A stretch of 64,000 nucleotides of DNA, taken from positions 173,883 through 237,882 of the forward strand of contig JACDFN010000001.1 of NCBI GenBank assembly GCA_013815775.1, in the 5' to 3' direction. Position 1 is the first letter of the stretch. Every line of letters begins with the position of its first letter. The notes beneath the pieces were generated by a model. That model made no database searches and had not been told where the DNA came from. It worked only from the letters and a program-made list of their open reading frames with translations. The DNA is from Candidatus Saccharimonadota bacterium. GTDB lineage: Bacteria; Patescibacteriota; Saccharimonadia; Saccharimonadales; UBA10212. Shown piece by piece: positions 8,667 through 27,913 of the stretch. Position numbers and translations under genes: made by a program.

Positions 8667-9833
8667 TTAACTCGTGTTAATCGGTAGTCTTAACCAGAAA
8701 GTGGTTCCTTTATTGAGTTGGCTTTTGAAGCTTACATCTCCGTTCATGCGGTCTACAAGCTGTTTTACTAGATATAAACCTAGCCCTGTGCCAGTCGGGT
8801 CAACTTCTATGGCATTATCTGCTCTAGAAAACTGATAATATATTTTTCTTTGATAATTTAGCGGTATTCCTATACCACTATCCTCAATACTTATTACTAC
8901 CGAATCACCAACCACTCTTCCACCGACCGAAATTTTTCCTTTAAGCGGCGTATATTTTATAGCGTTAGTTATCAAATTGGAAAGTACTTCATGAACAGCA
9001 TTTCTATCTACCATAAGCTTTGGTACATCTTTTGGAAGAATAACGTTATAAGATAATTTTTTAGTCTTAACTTCTGAACTCACTTCAGTAAATATTTCAT
9101 TGAACACATCGGTTATTACAACGGACTGTTCGGGGGACTTATATTTATTGTGGCCAGTGTTTGAGAGGTCTAAGAGCAGATTCAGGAGTTTATTTGTATG
9201 GTCTGCAGAGGTCTTGATAGTTTCCGCAAGCTTCTTCTGGGATGATGCGAGCTCCCCCGCATAGCCATCAATTAAGAGGTGAGAATAGGTTTTTATTGCG
9301 GAAATCGGAGTACGTAGCTGATGAGATGCAAGAGTGTTAAAATTACGGCTTATCTTTTCTTGTTCATATTCTTCTGTGACATTCTGTATCATTATTACGG
9401 ACTGTTTTGTAGTAATTATGTAGCGAATTATTAACTTTAAAATAATAGTCTCGTTGGTCGATGGTTGCCACTCGTACATGGCTTTATAGGTATCGTTTGT
9501 TTGCGCTATTTTCTCTCTGGGAATATAAGGTTCCGAACGAGCATCACCAATAGGGCTAAGCTTTAGCAGATTATTTATATTTTTTCCTAGCAGCAGGATT
9601 CGCGGCTCATTCATTAAGTCGGCAAAAGCATCATTAACAAACAGAAGTTCACCGTCAAAATTAATGACCGCCACAGAGTCAACAATGTTTGACATAACTA
9701 TATCCATCCAGGCTAGTGTCTGGCGAAGTTCTGTTATTTTACTCTTATATTCGGGTACGGGGCTATTCATATCAGACGTTACTCGCTGGCTTAATAATTG
9801 CCGCAAAGCGCCAAGTCGAGTCTTTTTTTTCAC
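8667..9833 (-). CDS. PAS-domain sensor histidine kinase
   Basis: 388 aa with an H-box (LASHQLRTPISAIKTY), N-box (LSNLITNAIKYT) and G-boxes (DSGIGIP, GTGLGLYLVK). A PAS-like segment lies upstream of the H-box. The GTG start sits directly on an A8 run. Confidence 0.85.
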   Translation of the reverse strand: MKKKTRLGALRQLLSQRVTSDMNSPVPEYKSKITELRQTLAWMDIVMSNIVDSVAVINFDGELLFVNDAFADLMNEPRILLLGKNINNLLKLSPIGDARSEPYIPREKIAQTNDTYKAMYEWQPSTNETIILKLIIRYIITTKQSVIMIQNVTEEYEQEKISRNFNTLASHQLRTPISAIKTYSHLLIDGYAGELASSQKKLAETIKTSADHTNKLLNLLLDLSNTGHNKYKSPEQSVVITDVFNEIFTEVSSEVKTKKLSYNVILPKDVPKLMVDRNAVHEVLSNLITNAIKYTPLKGKISVGGRVVGDSVVISIEDSGIGIPLNYQRKIYYQFSRADNAIEVDPTGTGLGLYLVKQLVDRMNGDVSFKSQLNKGTTFWLRLPINTS

Positions 9834-10225: not shown

Positions 10226-11416
10226 TTATTTTGACGGTAAAACCGGGAAGCTAATCGTAAAAGTAGAACCATAGTTAATCCTAGATTTGACTTGCATGCT
10301 ACCCCCATGTAGGTCCAATATTTTCTTTACCCAAAACAAGCCCAGCCCGGTACCTTCTACCGATACGGACAGCGGGTTATCTATCCGCGAAAACCTGAGA
10401 AATAATTTTTCTAAATCTTTTTTGCGTACTCCCACACCCTTATCCATAACCGAAACAGTATTTAATTTATTGGACTGCTTGAGGCCGATTGTTATTTTGC
10501 CACCTTCGTAAGAGTACTTACCGGCGTTCTCTAATAGATTTTCTAGCACCATGCGCATTAATTTTTTGTCAGCATAAGCGATTACCTTCTTGCTTGGTTT
10601 ATTAAAAATAATGCTTTGCCTGCGGACTTCGAATGTATCGAATTGATCCCGGACAACCTCCCCTATTTGCTTCGTTAAGTCATACTGCGACTTTACTAAA
10701 TGAACTTTTCCTTCATCAATTCGGGCTACTTTAAGCAAATCTTCTATTATATGTAGCTGCCGCTCGTTGCTTTCATATGCTGTGCTGAGCATACCCTTCT
10801 GCATTTTTGTTAGCTTGCCCCCAAAACCCTGTGCTAGCATCCCAATGTATTGTTTTACGGCCGTAGCGGGGGTACGAAGTTGATGAGAAGCCATTAGAAT
10901 AAACTCATCTTTAGCATCACTGAGGCTTTTAATTTTGTCATGCTGTCTAATCAAACCCTTAGTCATTTCAGATGAATCGCGTTGAAGTTGACTCTGCTGC
11001 GTAATATCTTGTATAGCGAGAAGTATAAGCTGCTTGTGATCGACTTGTCTGGCATTTAAAAGCATTGTTTTATGTCCCAAGGTGGGAAAATTGTGTGTGA
11101 TTTCATAATCAGAGAGGATCCTTTTTTTGGGAAGGATGTTTTCGAGCAGTCTTCGAAGTTCTGGAGTATCCCACTGGTTATTGCCCAGCTGGTAGATTGA
11201 TTTCTTCTCGGTGTCTTTTTTTAAAGCTTTGAATGTCTGGTAAAAGGAGTTATTTGCTGTAACTACACGTAAGTTTTTATCGAGAATAATAAATGGTTCT
11301 CTTATGGTCTCAGTAATCTCTTGATAATAGACAAGCAACTCTTGCAGGGTCGAAATACGATCCTTCTGTTTGAGTATTTTTTTCTTATCAGTATTTTGTC
11401 GAGTTAAATTTTTCAT
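10226..11416 (-). CDS. PAS-domain sensor histidine kinase
   Basis: 396 aa with an H-box (MASHQLRTPATAVKQY), N-box (LENLLENAGKYS) and G2 (GTGLGLFWVKK), plus an N-terminal PAS-like region. Confidence 0.85.
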   Translation of the reverse strand: MKNLTRQNTDKKKILKQKDRISTLQELLVYYQEITETIREPFIILDKNLRVVTANNSFYQTFKALKKDTEKKSIYQLGNNQWDTPELRRLLENILPKKRILSDYEITHNFPTLGHKTMLLNARQVDHKQLILLAIQDITQQSQLQRDSSEMTKGLIRQHDKIKSLSDAKDEFILMASHQLRTPATAVKQYIGMLAQGFGGKLTKMQKGMLSTAYESNERQLHIIEDLLKVARIDEGKVHLVKSQYDLTKQIGEVVRDQFDTFEVRRQSIIFNKPSKKVIAYADKKLMRMVLENLLENAGKYSYEGGKITIGLKQSNKLNTVSVMDKGVGVRKKDLEKLFLRFSRIDNPLSVSVEGTGLGLFWVKKILDLHGGSMQVKSRINYGSTFTISFPVLPSK

Positions 11417-17632: not shown

Positions 17633-18943
17633 TTACTCCAGATTGTTTACAGCTTCTTTAAATTGGTTGCCGCGGTCTTTGTAGTTTTCAAATAATCCAA
17701 AACTGGCACAACCGGTCGAAAGAAGAACTATATCTCCTTGCTGGGCGTTCTGGCGGGCGCCATTAACAATTTCGGCCATTGTAGTTAGTCCTTCGGTAAC
17801 ATGGTTGAAGCCCCTTTGCTTTAGCAAGCTAGTTATCTTGGGCCCCGTCTTACCAATAATTACGGCGTGGCGGACATTTGACTTAATTACTGCGTCGGCC
17901 ATTTCATCAAAGGGAATACCCTTATCCGATCCACCTAAAATCATCACCTTGGGATCTGCAAAGGCTTGCATAGCTACTATTGCCGTAGATGGAGTTGTGC
18001 CGAATGAATCATCGTAGTATTTTACCCCCTGCAGGCTCCGTACTAGCTCCAGGCGGTGTTCCAAGCCACTAAAGCTATACAATACTTCTTTAGCTCCGTC
18101 AAGGCTTCCTATAGCCTCAAAAACGGCCGTCAGGGCCGCACAGACGTTTTGAAGGTTATGCTCCCCGAGCAGCTTTACCTCGCTCTCATGGATGACCTTG
18201 GTTTCATCATCACCCATAACGATTACTCCATCATCTCTAACGCGGGCGCCTGGCTTTTGGTAATACGGTACTTTTTTTCCGGGGGAAAAATTAGCAATTT
18301 TAACCGAATAGTCGTTATGAGCAAAGTAAACTGTGGTGTCTTCGGCTAATTGTTTTTTAAATAGGTGTGTCTTGGCCTGTATGTAATCTTCTATATTCAA
18401 GTGCCAATCCAGGTGTTCGGGTTCAACCATAAGGCAAACTGCTATGTGAGGCGAATACTTTAAATCAATAATCTGGAAGTTTGCTAACTCTAAAACTACA
18501 TAGTCTTCTGCTGCGATGTTATCTTTTAGTAAATCAAGCGGAGGGGTACCAATATTCCCCCCTAAATGGACCCGCTTACCGGCAGCTTGTAACATCTTGG
18601 TTACTAAGGTCGAAGTTGTACCTTTTCCCTTAGTGCCTGTAACGCCAATAATATTTTTTGTCGGCGAAACCCGCATGAATTCATTAGTAACGCTGGTAAT
18701 CTTTTTAACAATATCGGCCGAGTTAGCTTTCACAATGTCGCTGGGGTGAACAACGGGCGACCGGACTATTAGATCAAACTCATCAAGGTTGCTCAGGTGG
18801 TTTGGTCCCAGCACCGTGCCGACGCCATCAGGCACTTTAATGTCAGTGTTTTGATCGCAAACTGTTATTTGATTGTCATTTTTATTCCAGTATTCTAAAG
18901 CGGCGCGGCCCTGTTCGCCGTAGCCGATTATTGCGATCTTCAC
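17633..18943 (-). CDS. murD: UDP-N-acetylmuramoylalanine--D-glutamate ligase
   Basis: 436 aa. Mur ligase P-loop GVTGTKGKGTTS and MurD-like N- and C-terminal domains. Confidence 0.9.
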   Translation of the reverse strand: MKIAIIGYGEQGRAALEYWNKNDNQITVCDQNTDIKVPDGVGTVLGPNHLSNLDEFDLIVRSPVVHPSDIVKANSADIVKKITSVTNEFMRVSPTKNIIGVTGTKGKGTTSTLVTKMLQAAGKRVHLGGNIGTPPLDLLKDNIAAEDYVVLELANFQIIDLKYSPHIAVCLMVEPEHLDWHLNIEDYIQAKTHLFKKQLAEDTTVYFAHNDYSVKIANFSPGKKVPYYQKPGARVRDDGVIVMGDDETKVIHESEVKLLGEHNLQNVCAALTAVFEAIGSLDGAKEVLYSFSGLEHRLELVRSLQGVKYYDDSFGTTPSTAIVAMQAFADPKVMILGGSDKGIPFDEMADAVIKSNVRHAVIIGKTGPKITSLLKQRGFNHVTEGLTTMAEIVNGARQNAQQGDIVLLSTGCASFGLFENYKDRGNQFKEAVNNLE

Positions 18944-18947
18944 CTTT

Positions 18948-19316
18948 TTAACTACCTAATTTTTGCTTAACTAGTTCTGCAACTTCCTTAGGGGTCATTT
19001 CGGCTTTTACAATAAAGCCGTCAATATTTAGCTCTTTTAGTCTCTCTGGAGCTTCTTGCTCGCTAACATTAGTTAGGATGATTACTTTAACTTCTTTACC
19101 CCAATCTGTCTTGCGCATCTTCTCTAACATTTCATCGCCGTTCATCTCCGGCATCATTAAGTCCAGCAAGACCATGTGCGGCCTCATGTCTTCGCAAAGC
19201 ATTAGCCCCAGCTTGCCGTTCTCAGCGATGTCTACTTTGTATCCTTCGCTTTCAAATTTAAGGCGGTACATCTGGGCTATAGCCAGGTCGTCTTCGACAA
19301 TCGCAATTTTCATCAT
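18948..19316 (-). CDS. Response regulator, receiver domain only
   Basis: 122 aa. CheY-like: IAIVEDD, the phospho-acceptor in VLLDLMMPEMNG, and the ILTN...K signature. It has no output domain. Confidence 0.85.
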   Translation of the reverse strand: MMKIAIVEDDLAIAQMYRLKFESEGYKVDIAENGKLGLMLCEDMRPHMVLLDLMMPEMNGDEMLEKMRKTDWGKEVKVIILTNVSEQEAPERLKELNIDGFIVKAEMTPKEVAELVKQKLGS

Positions 19317-19350
19317 TTAATAAATTCTACACCTTTCATCACTAACCTGT

Positions 19351-19743
19351 CTACTTAGGATTGAGTAGTTTGTTATAGCGTTCAAGAATTTCGATGACCA
19401 TCTCCGAGACTTGCTTTGGGGTGCTATAGGCTTTAACGATATACTTCTCAACTCTCAGAAGTCTTAAATCCATTGACGCTTCGTTCTGGCTAAGGTTAGT
19501 CAGCACTATCACAAGGGTGCTTCTCCCCCAATCTTGCTCACGCAACTTGCGCAGCATTTGTTGACCGCTCATTACAGGCATCATTAGGTCAAGTAACACC
19601 AAATCGGGTTTAAACTCTCTTATTAGCTGTAGGCCATCTTTGCCATCGTTTGCTTCGGCAACTTCCAATCCAGCAGCCCTTAACTTCATGCTGTACATGT
19701 CGCGGATTGGTTTGTCGTCTTCAATTATTGCTACCTTTGGCAT
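19351..19743 (-). CDS. Response regulator, receiver domain only
   Basis: 130 aa. VAIIEDD, LVLLDLMMPVMSG, VLTN...VKAY. It has no output domain. Confidence 0.85.
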   Translation of the reverse strand: MPKVAIIEDDKPIRDMYSMKLRAAGLEVAEANDGKDGLQLIREFKPDLVLLDLMMPVMSGQQMLRKLREQDWGRSTLVIVLTNLSQNEASMDLRLLRVEKYIVKAYSTPKQVSEMVIEILERYNKLLNPK

Positions 19744-19897
19744 ACATATCCCGCTTTTGATTAGTTGACTAATTGAATGTAATACGCTATAATTGTTTTT
19801 AGTAAACGTACTTTATCAGATTAGCACACCTTAAACTGGAAAATATTTTTCCGCGGTTTTGGTGTGCTTTTCATTTTAATAATCGTTAAGTAATAAC

Positions 19898-20452
19898 ATG
19901 GAATCTAAAAATAACTTCACACAACCAAAGACTGCCGCCGAGGAGACTTTGCCAGATAGCAATGAAAACTGGCTAACTCGGAATAAAAACAAGCTCGGTG
20001 TAGCTACTTTTATAGGGCTTGCTGCTCTCACTTTGGCAGAATTAGGAGAAGTAAAAAATGATATAGCCGAAAGTGCTCACTGGACAGTACCAGCAATTGC
20101 TGGGGCCGAAACTGTAGCAACCGCTGGCCTTGCAGCTATGATTGCTTCAACCGGGAATAAAATTGGAAACCCTTTAAGTATCCGAAAAAGGCTAACGGAA
20201 CTTCATTTAAAGAACAAACTAAGCAATAGTCGTACATTTAGAATTGGAGCATACCTTAATCTAGCAGGAGCCACGGGTACTGGCGGAGTTATAGCCACAG
20301 AAACGGTAGCTAGTTTCCCGGTATCTGCTTGGCCTGCTTCACTAGGTGTTGCAGGTTTATCGGTGGCTCTTTCGGCACCCTTCTATAGAATTGCTCGAAG
20401 TAAGGACAGAAGCATCGCTTTGAATGAGAAAGTCGACGAAGGTCAATTATGA
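19898..20452 (+). CDS. Ala/Gly-rich membrane protein (hypothetical), first gene of a 4-gene cassette
   Basis: 184 aa with 3-4 weakly hydrophobic helices. Its stop overlaps the next gene's start (ATGA at 20449-20452). Confidence 0.55.
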   Translation: MESKNNFTQPKTAAEETLPDSNENWLTRNKNKLGVATFIGLAALTLAELGEVKNDIAESAHWTVPAIAGAETVATAGLAAMIASTGNKIGNPLSIRKRLTELHLKNKLSNSRTFRIGAYLNLAGATGTGGVIATETVASFPVSAWPASLGVAGLSVALSAPFYRIARSKDRSIALNEKVDEGQL

Positions 20453-21216
20453 GTACGTTAGCTCCTAACGATAAAATTCATAATCCAGAGATAAATCTTG
20501 GTGTTTTCAATGGTCAATTAGAGAATTATTGGGTCGGGCGCATTGCCACTGCTAACATGAAAGACAGGGGTCGAATATTTGAGGCGGCCGCTATTTTCAG
20601 AGGCGATGTGTATTTGAATCTTGGCTACGTATCACCAGAGCAGGTAGATGAGCTGGGTCGGGAGATAGATTCAGATGACTCTAGGTCCATTCATTTCTCA
20701 GTCATGGAGAGGATTCCGGGATCAGATCCCAACAACTCTAGGATTATAGGTACGAGTCGTCTCATACTTAAAGACTCTCCTCACAATCAACTCCCAATCG
20801 AGTATTATTTTCCGGAGGTGTTTCAGCGGTCACCTGCACCAGTCGGAACGGTAGAAGTTTCGCGATTGATTGCTCACCACGAGGATGGTCGCATTCAGTA
20901 TCGCACAGCGCTGTCATTAATTAGAGCCATGACTCACTTCTCAATCAATAGAGGTATTAAAGCCGATTACTGCATGGTTGAAGAACCTCTGCTTCGATTT
21001 CTCAACTCTCAGGCTATACCTACAGAAATTATGGGAGAATCCAAAGAAATTACAGAGCAGGGAGGTGTGCTGTTCCCCGTAAAAATAGAACCCAGTAAAA
21101 TAATTAAAAATGTTTCTTCTTCTAGTTTGGGTAAGACCGCACTGAAAAATTTTTTTCTGAATGGTAGGAAAAATGGCGGCGAAGGCTACTACGATGGAAA
21201 CTTTATCAAGGAATAA
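20449..21216 (+). CDS. GNAT-fold N-acyltransferase of the LuxI/FeeM (autoinducer-synthase / N-acyl amino acid synthase) type, putative
   Basis: 255 aa. The pattern ...FRGDVYLNLGYV...DSDDSRSIHF...IGTSRLIL...VEVSRLIA...LIRAMTHFSINRGIKADYCMVEEPLLRFL... matches my recollection of FeeM/acyl-HSL-synthase-like acyltransferases. The family call was made by eye only. Confidence 0.5.
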   Translation: MSTLAPNDKIHNPEINLGVFNGQLENYWVGRIATANMKDRGRIFEAAAIFRGDVYLNLGYVSPEQVDELGREIDSDDSRSIHFSVMERIPGSDPNNSRIIGTSRLILKDSPHNQLPIEYYFPEVFQRSPAPVGTVEVSRLIAHHEDGRIQYRTALSLIRAMTHFSINRGIKADYCMVEEPLLRFLNSQAIPTEIMGESKEITEQGGVLFPVKIEPSKIIKNVSSSSLGKTALKNFFLNGRKNGGEGYYDGNFIKE

Positions 21217-21219
21217 TCC

Positions 21220-22101
21220 ATGAGCTATTCTCAACAATTTGAACGAAACCTCGGCTTCTTTTCATCTGATGAGCAGGACAAATTACAATCATCCTCCATT
21301 GCTATAGCTGGTGCTGGCGGCGATGGTGGAATGCTAGCCGTGCAACTTGCACGGTTGGGTATAGGTGAGATTCGGCTAGCTGATCCCGATCCTTTCGAAA
21401 TTGAGAACATTAATCGTCAAGCGGTTTGTAATACAGAAACGATTGGAGTGAATAAAGCAAGAGCAGTAGGGCAATATCTGCAAAAAATTAATCCTGAAGC
21501 AAACATTAGTATTTTTGAAGAGGGTATTACTCCTCAAAACACAGCTGAATTTCTAAAAGGCGCTGACTTATTGATTGATGAGACAGAATTTACGATTCCC
21601 GCAATTGGAGTAGGACTAGCTCGTGAAGCCCGGAACATTTCTATCCCCAACCTCACAGCTTTTAATATAGGATTCGGTGCTGTCGTAACTACCTACAAAC
21701 CAGAGGGTCACAAACTAGAAGAAACTCTTGGAATTGATGAAAACATGACACTCGAAGAAGTGGCAAAAGTAGAAGTGCCTTTAGCTAGATGGCTACCATA
21801 TCTTCCTGGCTATGGGGATATACAGGTTCTTGAAAAAGTTGCTAGACAAGAGAAACCGGCTCCTTCAGTAGCTCCGGGCGTGGCGATTGCTGCTGGGGCT
21901 GCAGCCACCCAAGCGGTCTTAAACTTACTTCATGGTGAAAATAAGCGCAAAGCCCCCGTATATGCATCTAATGCCCTAGTAATTGATGTTATGGAAGTAA
22001 AAGCCAGGATTATTAAGTATAATCGAACCTCGCATTATAGGTATTTAGGACAACTTCTTGTACGAAATATGCTGAAGTTAAATCCAAAGACTAGCTATTA
22101 A
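21220..22101 (+). CDS. ThiF/MoeB/HesA-family E1-like adenylyltransferase
   Basis: 293 aa. Rossmann motif IAIAGAGGDGGMLAVQLARLGIGEIRLADPDPFEIENINRQ (GxGxxG ... D.D ... N..RQ). It starts 3 nt after the preceding gene. Confidence 0.75.
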   Translation: MSYSQQFERNLGFFSSDEQDKLQSSSIAIAGAGGDGGMLAVQLARLGIGEIRLADPDPFEIENINRQAVCNTETIGVNKARAVGQYLQKINPEANISIFEEGITPQNTAEFLKGADLLIDETEFTIPAIGVGLAREARNISIPNLTAFNIGFGAVVTTYKPEGHKLEETLGIDENMTLEEVAKVEVPLARWLPYLPGYGDIQVLEKVARQEKPAPSVAPGVAIAAGAAATQAVLNLLHGENKRKAPVYASNALVIDVMEVKARIIKYNRTSHYRYLGQLLVRNMLKLNPKTSY

Positions 22102-22128
22102 AGATTACAATCTGCAATAATTGTACTA

Positions 22129-24255
22129 ATGTTTAATATTTATATTTGGGTTAGTGCGGCACTAGCATTGGTATTTATTATTCTGGGTATAGTTGTTGTT
22201 ACTCGGAATGCACACTCAAGGATAAATCGAATTTTTCTAGCCTTTAGTATCCTTATTGCTGGTTGGCTTGTAACCAATTACATCGGAGGGGATAAGAATA
22301 TTTCTCCTACATTGGCCCTCATTGATAACCGGTTGGTGTTTGTTTTTGGCATTCTAACTGCGTTCTCTCTCATGCTATTTATGAAGAATCTAGTTTCTTT
22401 AAAAGGCAATAATTTGTGGAATGGGTTAATAGTAGCCAATATTCTTACGGCTGCTACTTGTTTTACACCTCTTATCGTAAAAGAGGTAGAGCGAAATGTA
22501 GACACTTATACTATTATTTTTGGTCCATTATCTTCTATTTACTTCTTACTTCTTATAGTGAATTTACTCGCATCAGTAAGTATAGCAATTCTTGCTCGTC
22601 GGAAGGCAAGAGGACCAGTGAAGCCCCAAGTTGATACAATACTTGCAAGCTTGGCGATAACTCTTGGAGCTGTGATTATCACCAATGGGTTACTCCCTTT
22701 TCTTTTTAATTTTTACGCACTCGTTAATGCAGGCTCGTTTTTTACGACCATTCTTGTTACCGGCATTGCCTATAGCATGATAAGGCACAAGTTGTTTGAT
22801 ATCAGAACTTTTGCGGTTCGGGCTTTCGCTTATTCACTCACTTTTGCCGCCGCCTCTCTGATCTACATGGTGCCTACGTTCTTACTTACAGCTTATATAG
22901 CTGGTCGCACTATAGACTTTTCCACTTTAATATTGCTGGTCCCGGTTACGCTGATAACGGCTTTCTACTTTCAGCCTCTGAAAACTTACTTTAACCGGGC
23001 AACTGGAAAACTTTTCTTTCGAGATTACTATGAAGCCCAAGATGTCCTCGATAAATTAAGCAGTCTGCTGGTGGGAAGTGTTGAGGTAAAGCAGATTGAA
23101 AAAGAAAGTTCATTAATTCTAAAGAATGCTCTTAAGCCAGACTTTCTTAGATATTTATTAATAGCTGAGAACCAGGACGATGATTCGAATGAAATTTTAG
23201 CGATTTTAAGAAAAATCAACGATGATATGGTTGTTTTCGATGAACTAGACCCAGTCAAAGGTATTAAAATACGTGAGCTTTTCAGCAAGAATGATGTTTC
23301 TCTTGCAGTACGCCTACGCACCCAGCATGAAGAACTTGGCTATATGTTGCTTGGTTTTAAGCAATCAGGCTCGGCATATTCGGGAAACGATAAGAAGCTG
23401 TTAAGGATAGTAGCTGACGAAGTCGCCGTAGGACTGCAAAGTGCACTTCGGTTTGAAGAGATTTCGCAGTTTAACCTTACGCTACAGGCTAAAATTGAAG
23501 ATGCTACGCAGGAGATTCGAAAAGCTAACATCAAGCTCAGGGAGTTGGATAAGACTAAAGACGAGTTTATTAGCATGGCCAGCCACCAGCTTAGAACCCC
23601 ATTAACTGCCGTAAAGGGCTACTTAAGTATGGTGCTGGAAGAGGATACCGGTAAAATTAAGAAAGAGCAGAGGGACCTGCTACAACGGTCTTTTGATGGC
23701 GCCGACAGAATGGTTTACCTGATAGCCGACCTGCTAAACGTTTCGCGTTTGCAAAGCGGCAAGTTTGTTATAGAGAATAAGCCAACCGATTTGGTGAAGA
23801 TTGTATCAGCGGAAGTGGATCAGCTACAGGAGTCGGCAGCTAACCACCAGATTAAACTTTCGTTCCATAAGCCAGATAAATTTCCCGAGAGAGTACTTCT
23901 TGACGAGACCAAAATCCACCAGGTGGTGATGAACTTTATGGACAACGCCATTTATTACACTCCCGCAGGAGGAAGTGTGGAGGTGGCCCTTTCGTCTACC
24001 GATAAGGAGATAATCTATACAGTAACCGACACAGGTTTAGGAGTACCAAAAGCTGAGCAGCATCATTTGTTTGCAAAATTCTACCGGGCCGGCAATGCTC
24101 GTAAAATGCGGCCTGACGGGACCGGGTTAGGGCTTTATATGGCCAAAAAAGTAATAATTGCCCAGGGCGGAGCAGTTATCTTTAAAAGTACAGAAGGCAA
24201 GGGGAGTGTTTTTGGGTTCAGCTTTCCGCTGCACAAGATTGAAGTAAAAAGTTAG
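22129..24255 (+). CDS. Polytopic membrane sensor histidine kinase
   Basis: 708 aa. The N-terminal ~290 aa hold ~8 hydrophobic helices, followed by a cytoplasmic linker or GAF-like region and a coiled coil. H-box SMASHQLRTPLTAVKGY, N-box MNFMDNAIYYT, G2 GTGLGLYMAKK. It starts 27 nt after the ThiF-like gene. Confidence 0.85.
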   Translation: MFNIYIWVSAALALVFIILGIVVVTRNAHSRINRIFLAFSILIAGWLVTNYIGGDKNISPTLALIDNRLVFVFGILTAFSLMLFMKNLVSLKGNNLWNGLIVANILTAATCFTPLIVKEVERNVDTYTIIFGPLSSIYFLLLIVNLLASVSIAILARRKARGPVKPQVDTILASLAITLGAVIITNGLLPFLFNFYALVNAGSFFTTILVTGIAYSMIRHKLFDIRTFAVRAFAYSLTFAAASLIYMVPTFLLTAYIAGRTIDFSTLILLVPVTLITAFYFQPLKTYFNRATGKLFFRDYYEAQDVLDKLSSLLVGSVEVKQIEKESSLILKNALKPDFLRYLLIAENQDDDSNEILAILRKINDDMVVFDELDPVKGIKIRELFSKNDVSLAVRLRTQHEELGYMLLGFKQSGSAYSGNDKKLLRIVADEVAVGLQSALRFEEISQFNLTLQAKIEDATQEIRKANIKLRELDKTKDEFISMASHQLRTPLTAVKGYLSMVLEEDTGKIKKEQRDLLQRSFDGADRMVYLIADLLNVSRLQSGKFVIENKPTDLVKIVSAEVDQLQESAANHQIKLSFHKPDKFPERVLLDETKIHQVVMNFMDNAIYYTPAGGSVEVALSSTDKEIIYTVTDTGLGVPKAEQHHLFAKFYRAGNARKMRPDGTGLGLYMAKKVIIAQGGAVIFKSTEGKGSVFGFSFPLHKIEVKS

Positions 24256-24262
24256 AGCTTTC

Positions 24263-24291
24263 TTGTCTGCAAAATTAACGAAGAGTATAAT
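24263..24291 (+). promoter_or_regulatory. Sigma70-type promoter TTGTCT-17 nt-TATAAT driving the large ncRNA
   Basis: -35 at 24263-24268 and -10 at 24286-24291, with exactly 17 nt between them. It lies 8 nt after the kinase stop. Confidence 0.6.
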
Positions 24292-24297
24292 TTTAGA

Positions 24298-25077
24298 CAT
24301 CAAGGTTGTGCGCTTGCAGGTTTAACCCCCCTTGCCCTTTAAAAACGAGAGATTTGCAAAGAACGGCAGGGTGCAGAGCAGAAGCTCGGCTTAATACCCC
24401 CGCCAGAATGTGCCAGCCAAAGCAGTTCATCAAACCGCCAGCCGGCGCATCGTCCATGGGAGTCACCAATCACACCAACAATCATCCTTGGTGAAGAGGT
24501 GACAGCGGTGACTCCCAAACGTTTAAAGCAACTTGCTTCTTTAAGCGAGTGCTTAAGTCCCGCCCTGGGCCAGGTCTTTGATGGGACCTGAGAGGAATAG
24601 AGGCCAACGCCGCAGTGTTGTCTCGAACTCCCAGATCCCGGGGCGGTATAACCGACGTCCATAACTATTATGGCGTCACCACTAGGCTGCTGCTGCAAGG
24701 CGAGCGCGCGGCAGCCGAACCCCTTCGGGCAGCGCTTAGAGGGCTACCCCTCTGCGCTCCCGGCGGGTGAAAGTATATGGAACCTAGTTCCACAACTTTT
24801 TCTACAAGATCCGCTACCTGGCCACCCCCCCAGGTAACGGAAGGGGAAGCGGGTCCAAAACCCCCGCTTACTTCGGCTACAACCGGACATCGGCTGGAGT
24901 AAGGCTTGAAGGACTTGTTATCGTTGCTCGAGCAGTGTAACCCCCCCTCGCGCCGCTCGCGACTTAAGTCCTTCAGGCCTTCCCTGACTAACGATGCCTG
25001 CCAAATGGACGAGGATGAAAAAGCAAATCTCTCGCTTTCCCTTAAATTTTAACCACTCCACCAACACGGTGGTTTTT
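24298..25077 (+). ncRNA. Large (~780 nt) GC-rich structured non-coding RNA, class unassigned
   Basis: It has no credible ORF and lies between a promoter (24263-24291) and an intrinsic terminator (CCACC-AACAC-GGTGG-T5, 25058-25077). Local GC is ~60% (36/60 in each of two lines counted). A 12-bp closing helix pairs 24346-24357 with 25023-25034. A nested helix pairs 24451-24457 with 25005-25011. A 16-bp helix pairs 24901-24916 with 24966-24981, and a 9-bp helix pairs 24458-24466 with 24508-24516. Confidence 0.7.
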
Positions 25078-25582
25078 AATTTCATTTAAAACGCTTGTGC
25101 TATAGAATTATAATGGTATAGCTTATTGACAATATTGACTGCATATGGTAAAGTTATGGCATCCTCGCTTCTAGGCGAAGGGGTGCAAAAACCCTCTAAC
25201 AGGGGTGAACAATTACATCTGTTGACATCTGTTAGACCTAAGCGGGTGAGGCGTAGTCTTAACAAATTGATTTTGGAAGAAAATATAGTTTGTTTTAAAG
25301 CACATTGTCCTTGTTGGACAGTAGTGTAAAAGCAGGCTAGATAGTCATGGGTCTTTAAAGTAGAGCTGCAAATATAGCCTAGAAGCCTAGCAGTTCCTTT
25401 TAGCCCATACAACCGACAACGAAATTATTAGCCGCGCAGGGTTTTCGATGTCGTTCGGTGCATTAAGACGATAAGACTTTGTCGTTTTTATGCATCGTGC
25501 GACTAGCACGAAAAGCCCCTGCGACGGCCGCACGGCGCCAAGCCGTCGCAGGGAACTACTAGACCACCAGGAGGTGGAAGAA

Positions 25583-26755
25583 ATGACTCGGATTACCCGG
25601 GTGCTCATCATGGCCGCCGTCCTGGCGGCTATGAGTTCCGTTCTTCCCGGTATCGCTCACGCGGCGGCACCGGCAACCCAAGCGAGTCCGACCGCAACAA
25701 CCGCGTCGGACTGCGGATCTCCGGCCTACAACAAGCAGCAGTGGCTGCAAGGCTGGAAGGATCGTCCCGCACTCGCTCGTAGCGCAGAGGCTTGGGCACG
25801 CGCCCACTCGCGCTACACGCACATCAAGGCCGACCAGGGCTTCATGTCCTGGGCAAATCAGCCGCAGATTCAGGTCGTTTCGACGCCCAGGAACTACGTG
25901 CTGAGTACGAACACCTACTGCCCTGGCGGGCAGGGATTCTTCGACTACAAGTCGAAGCTCTCGCACGGCGGACAGAAGGTGATCGCTTGGTGCACGGTTT
26001 CCAAGTCGCTCAAGAAGGGTTACGGCTTCAGCCGGACGACCTACACGAAGACCTGCGTTCCGCTCGTCAAGAGCTACTGCAGGAATCTCGTGACGGGCAA
26101 GCCCTTCAAGATCGTCTGGACCGTCTCCAAGAAGACACCGGCCAAGCCGGCACCCCCCAAGCCGAACCCGCCAGTGGCGGTTCCGCCCGGGAGCTGCAAT
26201 GCGATCAACTCCCCCGGAGCGGTCGTCTGCAGTTCGTTCTACGTGATCGTCACGTGCGGCGGCGCGCAGATCAGCATCAACGGAAGCACCAAGGAGGAAG
26301 CGGAACAGAAGGCGAGCCAGTACGTGGCGAATAACTGCAATACGAGCTCGCCGGCTCCACCGCCTGTCGTGGTGAATCCACCTGCTCCGCCGCCTGTCTG
26401 CCCCCCGGGCACGACAGGTACTCCGCCGAACTGTCAGTACCCGCCCCCCCCGCCTCCGGCCAACCGGCCGCCGATGGTGACGATCGAGAATCCTCCGGCG
26501 CACGTGTGCGTCAATGGACGGTTCGAGTTCCGAGCCAATTTCTCGGACCCGGACGGGGACAACCTGCAGGTCAGCTGGTCGGCGACCTACGGCACGATTT
26601 CCAGTGGCCGCGAACGCGCAACGTTCACAGCACCCGGATCGGCTGGTACAGCCAGTGTCACGGTCACGGTGTCGGACGGCAAGGAAAGCCGTTCGGCTAC
26701 AGTCTCCTTCCCAATTCGGGCGGAGGCTTGGCCTCCGACCCCGGAGACCTGCTGA
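25583..26755 (+). CDS. Secreted Pro-rich protein with C-terminal PKD/Ig-like domain, encoded in a high-GC insert
   Basis: GGAGG RBS at 25570-25574. Signal peptide MTRITRVLIMAAVLAAMSSVLPGIAHAAAP. Pro-rich linkers (PAKPAPPKPNPPVAVPP; PPAPPPVCPP...PPPPPPANRPP). C-terminal FRANFSDPDGDNLQVSWSATYG...TVTVSDG is PKD-like. GC is 62-77% in counted lines against 22-28% in the flanks. The ORF is open from 25490 but the upstream part has no support. Confidence 0.75.
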   Translation: MTRITRVLIMAAVLAAMSSVLPGIAHAAAPATQASPTATTASDCGSPAYNKQQWLQGWKDRPALARSAEAWARAHSRYTHIKADQGFMSWANQPQIQVVSTPRNYVLSTNTYCPGGQGFFDYKSKLSHGGQKVIAWCTVSKSLKKGYGFSRTTYTKTCVPLVKSYCRNLVTGKPFKIVWTVSKKTPAKPAPPKPNPPVAVPPGSCNAINSPGAVVCSSFYVIVTCGGAQISINGSTKEEAEQKASQYVANNCNTSSPAPPPVVVNPPAPPPVCPPGTTGTPPNCQYPPPPPPANRPPMVTIENPPAHVCVNGRFEFRANFSDPDGDNLQVSWSATYGTISSGRERATFTAPGSAGTASVTVTVSDGKESRSATVSFPIRAEAWPPTPETC

Positions 26756-26929
26756 GCAGATCGTTAGTCGGTTGGGGCACTCGCATCGCGGGTGCCCCAC
26801 ACCGGCTGCCGGAAATTCCTCTCATCTGAGAGTAGAGTTTCCGGCAGCCGTTAAACAATGTTTAAAGCCCAATGACTATCTAGTTTGCAACTTAATAAAG
26901 TAATAAATTTAAAGAAAGGAGACTTTAAT

Positions 26930-27913
26930 ATGACAAGATTGTCTAAAGTCTTTGCAGCCCTTTTAATGGTGCCTGCGCTTGCCTTTGCTGGTACTGCCTA
27001 TGCAGCTGCCGAGGGGCAAATTGAAGGCGGTAATATTTACCGTATAAAAAATATAACTAAAAATAGCGAACTTACAGACCCAGCCAGTGCTGCTGCTTGT
27101 GATACCCTTTTGTACTGGGTTCGTATTCACAACCCAGGACCTGGTTTCCTGAGTGACGTAAAAGTTAAGGCTACTTTGCCTAACGTTACAGCCAATACTC
27201 ATAGCTCAACAATGACTGTAAGTGCAGTTAATGCAGACCCTACCAGTACTACTGATACAGCTACTGTTAATCTCTCAAGCTCACAGAGCTTAAACTACGA
27301 GAGTGGTAGTACTCAGCTGCTTGACGCAAACGGTAATGTTATGCGAACTCTTTCTGATGGTATTACCCAAGGCGGAGTTAGCATCGGTAACGTAGGCGTT
27401 TCTCTTGGTGAGAAGCGATTCGTACAGTTCAAAGTAAAAGTTAACTGCCCTCAACCTGTAGTTCCTAAGTCTAACTTTGAATGTAAGACTCTGGATGTAA
27501 ACCAAATTGACCGCACCCGGTTCGACTTTACAGCTCGAGCCTTTGCGGAAAACGCAGTAATCCAAAGCTACACATTTACAGTAAAGAACTCTGGTGGCTC
27601 TATGGTTGACACCAAAACCGTCAACACCAGCGCTACAAGTGCTGTTTACAATTTCGACCGCTCAGCAGCCGGCTCATACACCGTAAGTGTTATTGTCAAT
27701 ACTAACAAAGGCAGCACTTACGCTTCTAGCCTCTGCACAAAACACATAACAGTAAAAGAACAACCTACTACTCCTACTACTCCTCCGGTAGTTCAAGGCA
27801 AAACCACAGAAGAATTGCCTAACACCGGTGCAGGAAGCTTGTTAGGACTGTTTGCTGGAGCCAGCGCTGCTGGTTCAGCTGTCCATTACGCTGTCCGACG
27901 TTACATCGGATAA
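26930..27913 (+). CDS. LPXTG-anchored cell-surface protein
   Basis: AAAGGAG RBS. Signal peptide MTRLSKVFAALLMVPALAFAGTAYAAA. The C-terminal sorting signal is LPNTG, a hydrophobic stretch, then RRYIG. The middle consists of Ig/CARDB-like beta-rich domains. The ORF track starts at a TTG at 26885; I prefer the ATG at 26930. Confidence 0.85.
   Translation: MTRLSKVFAALLMVPALAFAGTAYAAAEGQIEGGNIYRIKNITKNSELTDPASAAACDTLLYWVRIHNPGPGFLSDVKVKATLPNVTANTHSSTMTVSAVNADPTSTTDTATVNLSSSQSLNYESGSTQLLDANGNVMRTLSDGITQGGVSIGNVGVSLGEKRFVQFKVKVNCPQPVVPKSNFECKTLDVNQIDRTRFDFTARAFAENAVIQSYTFTVKNSGGSMVDTKTVNTSATSAVYNFDRSAAGSYTVSVIVNTNKGSTYASSLCTKHITVKEQPTTPTTPPVVQGKTTEELPNTGAGSLLGLFAGASAAGSAVHYAVRRYIG

Follow-up and report, generated by a model that had tools for sequence, protein, structure and literature searches.

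A conserved acyltransferase–ThiF–histidine kinase operon in Candidatus Saccharimonadota, a candidate N-acyl amino acid pathway of the oxazolone type that lacks the oxidase

Organization of the locus

The window is a stretch of 64,000 nucleotides from a Candidatus Saccharimonadota contig, and in its positions 18948-24255 six open reading frames were re-derived with the same coordinates and sizes as in an earlier note made from the sequence alone. These genes and the features of the divergent spacer are as follows.

18948-19316, minus strand: receiver RR1, 122 aa, Response_reg
19351-19743, minus strand: receiver RR2, 130 aa, Response_reg
19765-19793, plus strand: promoter-like site TTGACT-17-TATAAT between the divergent genes, matching 11/12 consensus positions and the top match in 18800-24700, but a lead only, since the count of such sites in the region is not above that of shuffles
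19823-19868, plus strand: leader hairpin, with a U-tract after it (19869-19878), both downstream of the promoter-like site and ahead of the first start codon
19898-20452, plus strand: Ala/Gly-rich membrane protein, 184 aa, no Pfam match
20449-21216, plus strand: GNAT, an N-acyl amino acid synthase-type acyltransferase (NAS), 255 aa, LuxI/FeeM fold
21220-22101, plus strand: ThiF-family adenylating enzyme, 293 aa, PF00899
22129-24255, plus strand: polytopic sensor histidine kinase, 708 aa, HisKA and HATPase_c

The four plus-strand genes are joined by an ATGA overlap (20449-20452) and by gaps of 3 nt (21217-21219) and 27 nt (22102-22128), and as these junctions and the Pfam domain calls were likewise all reproduced, the operon observation in this window is confirmed. 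Neighbouring genes of the cassette include murI and murD.

The leader hairpin has a fold energy of -30 kcal/mol (z = -5.7 against 200 shuffles), and comparable long hairpins with a U-run are found in the leaders of the related loci L010 (z -5.8), L012 (-5.5), L021 (-4.2) and L011 (-3.2); L008 has a weaker one and L018 none, and no sequence conservation of the hairpin was found across the compared loci. Attenuation, stabilisation of the 5' end and production of a short RNA are conceivable roles. The leaders of L010, L021, L011 and L018 show sites similar to the promoter-like one, of the form TTGAC[AT]-17-TATxxT.

Conservation of the cassette

Eighteen other distinct loci have the same gene order, with GNAT identities down to 24-28%, and we can conclude that the arrangement is not due to chance. 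In all 19 distinct loci the NAS and ThiF genes are either neighbours or fused, and the fusions into a single protein were verified with Pfam in L016, L023/P0130, P0132 and P0203, with about 10 further representatives being of fusion size (537-587 aa). A kinase with the same HisKA_7TM-like sensor lies directly downstream of ThiF in 18/19 loci, the exception being L015, which has a membrane PAS-GGDEF-EAL protein instead and is labelled Acidimicrobiia, although taxonomic labels beyond Patescibacteria are those of MAG bins and may be wrong. Receiver-only regulators are found wherever a locus has sufficient flank, and the synteny of the module is thus strongly conserved across the neighbourhoods of the 19 loci, with the 184-aa gene present in just six of them.

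That gene had been counted in the earlier note among the four of the operon, and its distribution does not bear it out as a core part. Homologues in the same position were found only in L010, L008/9, L012, L020 and L024, an unrelated membrane protein takes the slot in L011 and L019, and the slot is empty in L001, L013, L014, L016, L018 and L021. The protein, 184 aa here vs 167 aa in the deposited annotation, has about 3-4 hydrophobic helices, matched nothing in Pfam and gave a poor AF2 model (pLDDT 53); judging from its occurrence it is a lineage-specific accessory and not a core component.

The acyltransferase and the ThiF-family enzyme

Single-sequence searches with the GNAT gave weak matches, to Pfam FeeM (2.5e-5, 24.5 bits, gathering cut-off 27) and to the NCBIfam model TIGR03694 for exosortase-associated acyltransferases, its best there (3e-12, 46.5 bits, cut-off 111.95). 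Pfam matches to Autoind_synth and ThiF had been anticipated for the two enzymes, and the latter is indeed strong (4e-34), whereas the former is only weak and under the gathering threshold (0.003). The proposed LuxI/FeeM-like fold is nonetheless upheld by a profile built from 15 GNAT orthologues, which matches the acyl-homoserine lactone (AHL) synthases TofI (4.7e-7), LasI (1e-5) and BjaI (3e-4), and by the AF2 model (pLDDT 82.9), for which a Foldseek search of the PDB placed AHL synthases at ranks 1-12 (BjaI, 7.7e-10) and FeeM chains at ranks 13-15 (6.6e-6). The LuxI-type invariant residues R51, Y55, E72, D74, D77, R104, E136, S138 and R139 are kept, and the position of LuxI Trp34 is Tyr or Phe in these GNATs.

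The ThiF-family enzyme carries the motifs GAGGDGG (residue 31), NINRQ (63) and DETE (120), has a single cysteine and no CxxC, and so keeps the adenylation motifs but has neither a catalytic Cys nor a Zn motif. Its best NCBIfam models are PRK08223 (2e-52, 178 bits vs a curated cut-off of 266) and PRK14851 (3.6e-35 over the full length), and the Rv1355c family model matches in part (65 bits, residues 8-145). Scores far under the cut-offs for TcdA, MoeB and ThiF indicate that it is not a housekeeping orthologue of any of these, and the lack of a GG-terminated partner likewise stood, since no GG-ended or otherwise conserved small ORF was found when spacer and cassette were compared across loci; the spacer upstream of the cassette is just 35-36 nt in L016 and L020. 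Among representatives of 50%-identity clusters the nearest is P0128, whose ThiF domain is 53% identical to that of the window. It is a fusion of ThiF with an Acg-family FMN oxidoreductase (NF047509, 1.2e-36), which is the OxzB/TrzS architecture, and it lies on another Saccharibacteria-type contig in the order MurD, receivers, NAS, ThiF and kinase. The existence of such a fusion within the same cassette of a Saccharibacteria relative ties the family to oxazolone chemistry, the link of the window enzyme to OxzB, TyzB and TrzS being drawn through P0128 and through NCBIfam models that all score under their curated cut-offs. Neither a nitroreductase-family flavin oxidase (FDO) domain in the window ThiF nor an FDO gene in the window was found, and 18/19 loci are without one, FDO being present in 1/19.

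The kinase and the receivers

The kinase (HisKA 5e-17, HATPase_c 5e-24) consists of a sensor in residues 1-290 with roughly 8-9 TM helices (a crude hydropathy scan of residues 1-280 gave about 9 hydrophobic segments), a cytoplasmic linker domain, HisKA and HATPase_c. The sensor is HisKA_7TM-like, in that an N-terminal profile of 15 cassette kinases matches the bona fide Pfam domain at 1e-41 and the L025 orthologue itself carries the annotation. Pairwise divergence of NAS and of the TM sensor is correlated (Spearman 0.56-0.69), also with ThiF controlled for in a partial Mantel test (r about 0.58, p <= 0.0007), as measured by crude identity distances over 10-12 loci, and no correlation of NAS divergence with the kinase core or with the equally fast-evolving linker domain was found in the same loci.

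Response_reg is the sole Pfam match in RR1 (1.4e-21) and RR2 (2.6e-20), with no output domain in either. RR1 has by reading of its sequence the phospho-acceptor set E8-D9-D10, D52, T82 and K104, and is the best-conserved component of the module, its orthologues being 61-78% identical and flanking the cassette in 8 compared loci, with murD packed against it in many loci. The number of receivers of this type differs among loci, from 1 to 3.

Proposed function and alternatives

An N-acyl amino acid synthase acting together with a ThiF-type ATP-dependent cyclase constitutes the oxazolone pathway, in which OxzA, TyzA or TrzA N-acylates amino acids before the ThiF partner cyclises the product, and the published systems always include an FDO (bioRxiv 10.1101/2020.06.11.147165; PMC10404671; PMC12856293). 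OxzAB, TyzACB and TrzAS therefore supersede the earlier note on this point, which knew of no described pathway combining an E1-like adenylase and a LuxI/FeeM-like acyltransferase. When TrzS lacks a working oxidase or O2, the saturated cyclised intermediate builds up (PMC12856293).

We consider the operon, with a probability of about 0.55, to be a form of this pathway that does without the oxidase and is linked to a two-component system of its own, and N-acyl amino acid formation and cyclisation by ThiF are jointly quite likely. On close homology to OxzB, TyzB and TrzS and their published biochemistry, the 293-aa ThiF enzyme would adenylate the free carboxylate of an N-acyl amino acid, and an intramolecular nucleophile, the amide oxygen or some other, would then displace the AMP and close a ring. 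Since there is no flavin oxidase, this ring would be saturated, a 2-alkyl-5(4H)-oxazolone (azlactone) or a related one, and not of the conjugated tyrazolone type. On this reading the pair makes an N-acyl amino acid in cyclised or activated form, which is probably a saturated oxazolone and would be coupled in function to the kinase. Hydrolysis of a saturated oxazolone gives the N-acyl amino acid again, so that the real end product may differ. Within the membrane, the HisKA_7TM-like sensor might then recognise this hydrophobic and labile product, or its precursor, upon which the kinase would phosphorylate the adjacent CheY-like single-domain regulators, which, having no DNA-binding domain, must act by way of protein contacts or a phosphorelay. 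This sensing and phosphorylation step, suggested by synteny and co-divergence, is put forward tentatively as at best an even chance, although the notion of a producer-and-sensor module does gain support from both.

The co-location of the kinase is equally compatible with it controlling the pathway, and a somewhat unlikely alternative is that it senses an external or envelope cue and that the CheY-like regulators or co-expression govern the NAS-ThiF pair, whose product would then not be the ligand of the kinase but an effector, for instance an antimicrobial, a stress metabolite or a lipid of the envelope. Antibiotics induce oxazolone production in proteobacteria, the tyz genes of Mycobacterium tuberculosis are tied to oxidative-stress resistance, Stieleria has antimicrobial N-acyl tyrosine derivatives, control at the protein level is plausible for receivers having no DNA-binding output, and murD is packed against RR1 in many loci. 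However, NAS divergence follows the membrane sensor of the kinase alone, which is expected of a ligand-receptor pair and not of a generic regulator, and the kinase gene shares its transcript with the enzyme genes and not with those of the regulators.

It is rather improbable that the ThiF adenylate or azlactone serves as an activated N-acyl-aminoacyl donor to an amine or hydroxyl group on a lipid, cell-wall precursor, second amino acid or protein, or that the cycle racemises the amino acid, to give a stable conjugate or an N-acyl-D-amino acid. ThiF-like enzymes do activate carboxylates for many different nucleophiles (PMC12596934), ring hydrolysis without FDO would amount to a futile ATP cycle, the neighbours murI and murD handle D-Glu, and membrane partners recur beside ThiF in the form of two unrelated small membrane-protein families and a TM extension on the ThiF of L025. 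Over half of the loci are, however, without membrane partners, the core cassette has no conserved acceptor-specific or transferase gene, and all characterised relatives cyclise.

A true SAM-dependent AHL synthase next to an accidentally adjacent housekeeping ThiF is very improbable in spite of the fold, the profile matches and the majority of LuxI invariant residues, given the pairing in 19/19 loci, partly as one protein, the low ThiF, MoeB and TcdA equivalog scores, the residue at LuxI Trp34 and sub-threshold Autoind_synth match, and the fact that an AHL has no free carboxylate for the ThiF enzyme. Peptide or protein modification, the alternative raised earlier, is equally improbable, whether of the MccB/PaaA RiPP type or as E1/ubiquitin-like conjugation or defence, and none of the tested features favours it, since the matches to MccB, PaaA, Cap2 and E1 adenylation domains (1e-8 to 1e-17) are limited to the common Rossmann core (about residues 16-160), the ThiF domain begins at residue 8 and leaves no N-terminal peptide-clamp domain, a catalytic Cys, partners of the E2 or JAB kind and any small ORF that is conserved or ends in GG are all missing, and the upstream spacers of L016 and L020 are so short.

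Comparison with known systems

Among the known systems nearest to the cassette is OxzAB, described from proteobacteria including Pseudoalteromonas rubra (de Rond et al.), where one operon likewise has the N-acyltransferase gene directly before the gene for a ThiF-family protein, which uses ATP on a small-molecule N-acyl amino acid. Its ThiF-FDO di-domain is also present in L021, a relative of the window cassette. The window ThiF differs in having no nitroreductase/FDO domain, a dedicated kinase and receivers have not been reported beside oxzAB, and the hosts are proteobacteria as opposed to Patescibacteria. TyzACB and TrzAS of M. tuberculosis likewise combine a NAS of FeeM/BjaI-like fold with a ThiF-type ATP-dependent cyclase, and the ThiF domain of TrzS can yield a saturated oxazolone once oxidation is blocked, but both systems have an FDO, as the separate TyzC or fused in TrzS, and neither has a co-transcribed histidine kinase. 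The trzAS genes adjoin signalling (c-di-GMP) genes, as does L015, whose PAS-GGDEF-EAL neighbour parallels them.

FeeM and the PEP-CTERM-associated N-acyl amino acid synthases (PF21926, TIGR03694) have their fold and motif set in common with the window GNAT, which however falls under the curated cut-offs and is partnered by a ThiF, and no exosortase setting was seen around it. The tRNA ct6A synthase TcdA, also of the ThiF family, acts on an N-carbamoylated amino acid moiety, whose carboxylate it adenylates before closing the ring, but its substrate is tRNA, its neighbours are others, and its equivalog model gives the window ThiF 57 bits vs a cut-off of 304. In LuxM/LuxN, CqsA/CqsS and Legionella LqsA/LqsS/LqsR a synthase is encoded beside a polytopic kinase that senses its lipophilic product, and Lqs also has a receiver protein without classical DNA-binding output. 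The synthase chemistry and kinase sensor domains of these systems are unrelated to those of the window cassette, and the resemblance, with sensing here being putative, is one of system logic. The enzyme pair is thus of the known oxazolone-lipid type and is set apart by missing the usual oxidase and by having its own kinase and receivers, and the conservation of such a synthase pair beside its own membrane kinase and CheY-like regulators suggests that the poorly understood oxazolone lipids may serve as signals.

Gene organization and flanking DNA

The cassette at 18948-24255 of the window appears to encode an oxazolone-type N-acyl amino acid pathway in a variant that lacks the oxidase and is linked to a kinase. 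ORF calls confirm the exact positions that the earlier note had given for its six genes, as well as the junctions described there, an ATGA overlap followed by a 3-nt and then a 27-nt gap. The features are:

18948-19316 (-): receiver-only regulator RR1, matching Pfam Response_reg alone
19351-19743 (-): receiver-only regulator RR2, likewise matching Response_reg alone
Divergent spacer: promoter-like TTGACT-17-TATAAT, the best such site in the region
19823-19878 (+): leader hairpin with U-tract, between the promoter-like site and the first start codon (z = -5.7)
19898 to 24255 (+): the four co-directional cassette genes, namely
19898-20452 (+): 184-aa membrane protein
20449-21216 (+): 255-aa GNAT-fold acyltransferase, a putative N-acyl amino acid synthase (NAS)
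21220-22101 (+): 293-aa ThiF-type enzyme
22129-24255 (+): 708-aa kinase with Pfam HisKA and HATPase_c domains

Since the genes diverge from the spacer on both sides, the leader hairpin is not the terminator of an upstream gene, and it may be an attenuator, a 5' stabilizer or a short RNA. A long leader hairpin with a U-run recurs in at least four other cassettes (L010, L012, L021 and L011) without conservation of its sequence, and Rfam and tRNA scans of 18000-27000 gave no match.

On the minus strand RR2, RR1 and murD are packed together (17633-19743(-)), RR1 ending with its stop codon at 18948 and murD starting at 18943. RR1 and MurD, with folD and murI further along, remain neighbours in L010-L014, L018, L020 and L021 but not in L001, L006, L008 and L019; this adjacency may tie the regulators to cell-wall synthesis through a shared operon or be lineage synteny only. 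The 1.2 kb after the kinase (24256-25489) hold few ORFs, have a GC content of about 52% versus about 43%, contain no Rfam or tRNA match and share only a weak 77-nt similarity with the post-kinase gap of L010. Then follows a GC-rich segment encoding a 421-aa proline-rich putative secreted protein (25490-26755(+)), which is overlapped almost wholly by a 413-aa antisense ORF (25559-26800(-)) and has no homologue in any compared locus; proline-rich proteins of like size come after the kinase in L001 and L021. Further on, 26885-27913(+) encodes a surface protein of 342 aa whose C-terminus carries an LPNTG sortase motif; its homologues are found downstream of the cassette at the matching place in L021/L022 (1e-46) and L001 (8e-14).

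The acyltransferase

The acyltransferase, which is identical in sequence to the NCBI protein H0X09_01075, is predicted by structural modelling to have the LuxI/FeeM fold. This fold had been called by eye, and profile matches, Foldseek and conserved residues all bear the call out; the Pfam matches to FeeM (PF21926, 24.5 bits against a cut-off of 27) and Autoind_synth (PF00765, 17.6 bits against 24) are both sub-threshold. Searching with a profile built from 15 orthologues gave matches to the AHL synthases TofI, LasI and BjaI (4.7e-7 to 3e-4), the single sequence finding no match in the PDB, and a Foldseek search with the AlphaFold2 model (pLDDT 82.9, pTM 0.86) returns AHL synthases at PDB ranks 1-12 (BjaI 7.7e-10) and FeeM chains at ranks 13-15 (6.6e-6). 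The structural neighbours of TyzA reported by Grigg et al. are likewise FeeM 2G0B and BjaI 5W8C. Furthermore, the invariant residues of the LuxI type are present, that is R51, Y55, E72-x-D74-x-x-D77, R104 and E136-x-S138-R139. The SAM-contacting Trp34 of the R..F...W motif in LuxI is replaced by Tyr or Phe, with Leu in a single one of the 15 orthologues, and together with the sub-threshold Autoind_synth score this replacement led us to reject membership of the LuxI-type AHL synthases. Confident FeeM matches are found in the orthologues from L018, L019 and L006 and in the fusion protein P0203 (76.7 bits), and the window enzyme also gives a sub-threshold match to TIGR03694, the exosortase-associated acyltransferase.

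The ThiF-type enzyme

A ThiF domain is present, as anticipated (Pfam, 4e-34), and begins at residue 8, an N-terminal peptide-clamp extension being absent. The adenylation motifs GAGGDGG, NINRQ and DETE are all kept, there is a single cysteine (C70), and the CxxC zinc site is missing. The best NCBIfam models, PRK08223 (2e-52), PRK14851 and PRK14852, all describe 'hypothetical' families; PRK14851 covers the full length of the protein (3.6e-35), and the Rv1355c-family model gives a partial match only (3e-18). Among the cassette's enzymes this protein shows the strongest conservation, 51-69% identity compared with 50-58% for MurD and 30-54% for the acyltransferase, and two C-terminal motifs, RWLPYLPxYGD and KxAPS[IV]APGV, do not vary within the window clade and are recognisable in the ThiF proteins that have a fused FDO (a flavin-dependent oxidase from the nitroreductase superfamily). 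The closest solved relative, PDB 9egb/9egc/9egd (5e-18, residues 5-237 aligned, nearly full length), is an uncharacterised 265-aa protein entitled 'THIF-type NAD/FAD binding fold', for which no paper was found.

Other functions known for E1-like enzymes were considered for the cassette and all rejected. An enzyme modifying a ribosomally made peptide, of the MccB or PaaA type, would be in keeping with the PDB matches to these proteins, but the matches span residues 18-108 only, and the reading is contradicted by the missing peptide clamp, the lack of any conserved micro-ORF and the upstream spacers of L016 and L020, which measure just 35-36 nt. Activation of ubiquitin-like proteins, as by ThiF, MoeB or E1, is opposed by the single cysteine, the missing CxxC and the lack of a plausible GG-ended ORF in the window; the earlier observation that no GG-terminated partner or precursor is present extends to the small genes that follow the kinase and to the spacers lying upstream in 12 loci, where neither GG-terminated nor conserved small ORFs were found. 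An anti-phage E1-E2 (Cap2-like) system is suggested by PADLOC models, which however match the generic adenylation core only (1e-17, residues 16-161), and the other three cassette proteins match no defence-system partner model. Finally, an ordinary housekeeping orthologue, which the earlier note had held open, is excluded by equivalog scores far under the cut-offs, both for ThiF, MoeB and UbaA (55-91 bits) and for the ct6A synthase TcdA (NF011696, 57 bits versus 304).

Fusion proteins and the missing oxidase

An exhaustive HMMER search for ThiF homologues over 1.84 billion cluster representatives placed P0128 at the top, a 636-aa protein with 53% identity to the window enzyme in its ThiF domain. 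In P0128 this domain is fused with a full-length Acg-family FMN oxidoreductase (NF047509, 1.2e-36), and PRK14851 matches across both domains. The gene order around it in L021 is syntenic with the window: FolD-MurI-MurD, three receivers, NAS, ThiF-FDO and a 735-aa kinase. By way of P0128 and the NCBIfam models, the window ThiF is a putative member of the clade of OxzB (A0A5S3UR53), TyzB (P95234) and TrzS. Many representatives of 537-587 aa carry the ThiF domain in their C-terminal half, and the three that were checked against Pfam are NAS-ThiF fusions; FDO-ThiF and ThiF-glycosyltransferase fusions also occur. Single-protein NAS-ThiF fusions of 551 aa are encoded in L016 (7206-8861, Saccharibacteria UBA6175) and L023 (135-1790), and in L025 (581-1930) ThiF is lengthened at its C-terminus by about 150 aa of membrane sequence.

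Among the loci examined, an FDO is found in L021/L022 only. A phmmer search with FDO domains taken from three fusions, covering every ORF of 50 aa or more in the 64-kb window and in 17 loci, gave no match, and all 120 of the closest ThiF clusters listed are 281-317 aa long, from which it follows that the common form of the cassette is oxidase-less and L021/L022 exceptional. On the Rhodococcus qingshengii plasmid pN9T4-3 (L027, 1846-4729), a GNAT N-acyltransferase gene and a ThiF gene are split by IS256; this ThiF is 35% identical to that of the window and apparently truncated by the insertion, and no nitroreductase is annotated nearby.

Conservation of the cassette

The arrangement was compared in the window and 18 other distinct loci (L001, L004, L006, L008, L010-L016, L018-L021 and L023-L025), and the synteny that the earlier note had asked for in relatives is indeed there. 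The NAS lies immediately upstream of ThiF or is fused with it in 19/19 loci, a kinase sharing the N-terminal polytopic sensor lies directly downstream of ThiF in 18/19, and one to three receiver-only regulators occur in every locus with enough flank. The exception is L015 (7276-11938, an Acidimicrobiia MAG), in which a 990-aa membrane PAS-GGDEF-EAL protein, whose N-terminal TM region does not match the kinase-sensor profile, follows the NAS-ThiF pair. The pair thus appears wired to c-di-GMP signalling here, as noted for trzAS of Mtb, which similarly adjoins c-di-GMP genes (Kleetz et al.). Saccharibacteria and further Patescibacteria account for most loci, and one assignment each to Prolixibacteraceae and Acidimicrobiia comes from MAG binning. 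The genome-contig search yielded at least 7 loci, a thin sample of the phyletic distribution, and at 90% identity there are at least 120 distinct ThiF clusters, mostly from Patescibacteria.

The 184-aa membrane protein is accessory. Only five homologues were found, and its family is present in 6 loci; an unrelated membrane protein takes its position in 2, and a TM extension of ThiF is seen in 1. No similarity was detected between membrane-protein families A and B and the TM extension of the representative P0140, and the AF2 model of the 184-aa protein has a pLDDT of 53.

The kinase sensor

The sensor of the kinase is probably a member of Pfam HisKA_7TM (PF16927) or a near relative of that family. 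The window kinase has no direct match to it, and the orthologue from L021 reaches 19.5 bits, the cut-off being 28.6; the orthologue that follows ThiF in L025 is annotated as HisKA_7TM by Pfam, and a profile built from the cassette sensors matches a true member of the family (1e-41). When pairwise divergence was compared across 12 cassettes, a small sample treated by a crude method, NAS distances followed those of the TM sensor (Spearman 0.56-0.69). With ThiF controlled for in a partial Mantel test, r is about 0.58 (p <= 0.0007), a result that is stable after removal of outlier loci. NAS distances are in contrast uncorrelated with those of the equally divergent cytoplasmic linker (r about 0.1) and of the kinase core (r about 0). 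Such co-divergence is suggestive, being the pattern expected if the sensor recognises the product of the synthase. Two more histidine-kinase genes of the window, 8667-9833(-) and 10226-11416(-), match the cassette kinase in the core only.

Proposed pathway and comparison with known oxazolone systems

The pairing of acyltransferase and E1-like enzyme, which the earlier note took to be undescribed, has been published for OxzAB, TyzACB and TrzAS. OxzA/OxzB (10.1101/2020.06.11.147165), TyzA/TyzB/TyzC (PMC10404671) and TrzA/TrzS (PMC12856293) share a common logic, in which an NAS forms an N-acylated aromatic amino acid, ATP-dependent cyclisation by a ThiF-type enzyme turns this into an oxazolone, and an FDO, fused or adjacent, desaturates the ring, so that the product is an unsaturated 4-arylidene oxazolone. 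NAS-ThiF-nitroreductase clusters are also known in Stieleria, Thalassotalea and Massilia, and a 2025 review (PMC12596934) names OxzB as the sole ThiF-like enzyme for which activity on a small molecule is known. Acids and alcohols destroy oxazolones (PMC12856293). With limiting O2 or a crippled oxidase TrzS accumulates the saturated cyclised intermediate (PMC12856293), and a ThiF of that type can therefore make a saturated azlactone alone.

By analogy, the window NAS would N-acylate an amino acid, and ThiF would activate the carboxylate with ATP and cyclise the N-acyl amino acid. This enzyme logic, N-acylation and then ATP-dependent activation and cyclisation, appears well supported by homology and gene fusions; the identity of the product is inferred, and so is a sensing step in which the cassette kinase would respond to the product of the pathway. 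The cassettes offer a natural set of oxidase-less cyclases, with a saturated azlactone, a conjugate or a racemate as candidate products, and a candidate receptor for the oxazolone lipid class, the physiological role of which was called a major unresolved question by its discoverers. The conserved kinase linkage makes a signalling role of oxazolones directly testable and raises the possibility of small-molecule signalling in ultra-small episymbionts that rely on their hosts for lipids. A bolder proposal, which we consider rather unlikely at roughly one chance in four, is that saturated oxazolones or related cyclised N-acyl amino acids serve Saccharibacteria and further Patescibacteria as labile, lipophilic autoinducers, with HisKA_7TM-type kinases as their cognate receptors. 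If so, synthase and sensor would diversify jointly into specificity groups, the oxazolone class would gain its first receptor, and CPR bacteria would have their first described system of self-contained small-molecule signalling; in a more extreme sub-case of the autoinducer proposal, ThiF would lactonise N-acyl-homoserine and so provide a SAM-independent route to AHLs.

No paper on a kinase-linked or oxidase-less form of such a cassette was found. Here the enzyme pair is widespread and fixed beside a dedicated membrane kinase and CheY-like receivers, mostly without an oxidase. Like the published oxazolone systems, the window cassette has an NAS of the LuxI/FeeM fold next to ThiF, but whereas those systems have an FDO fused or adjacent to ThiF, the window cassette has none.
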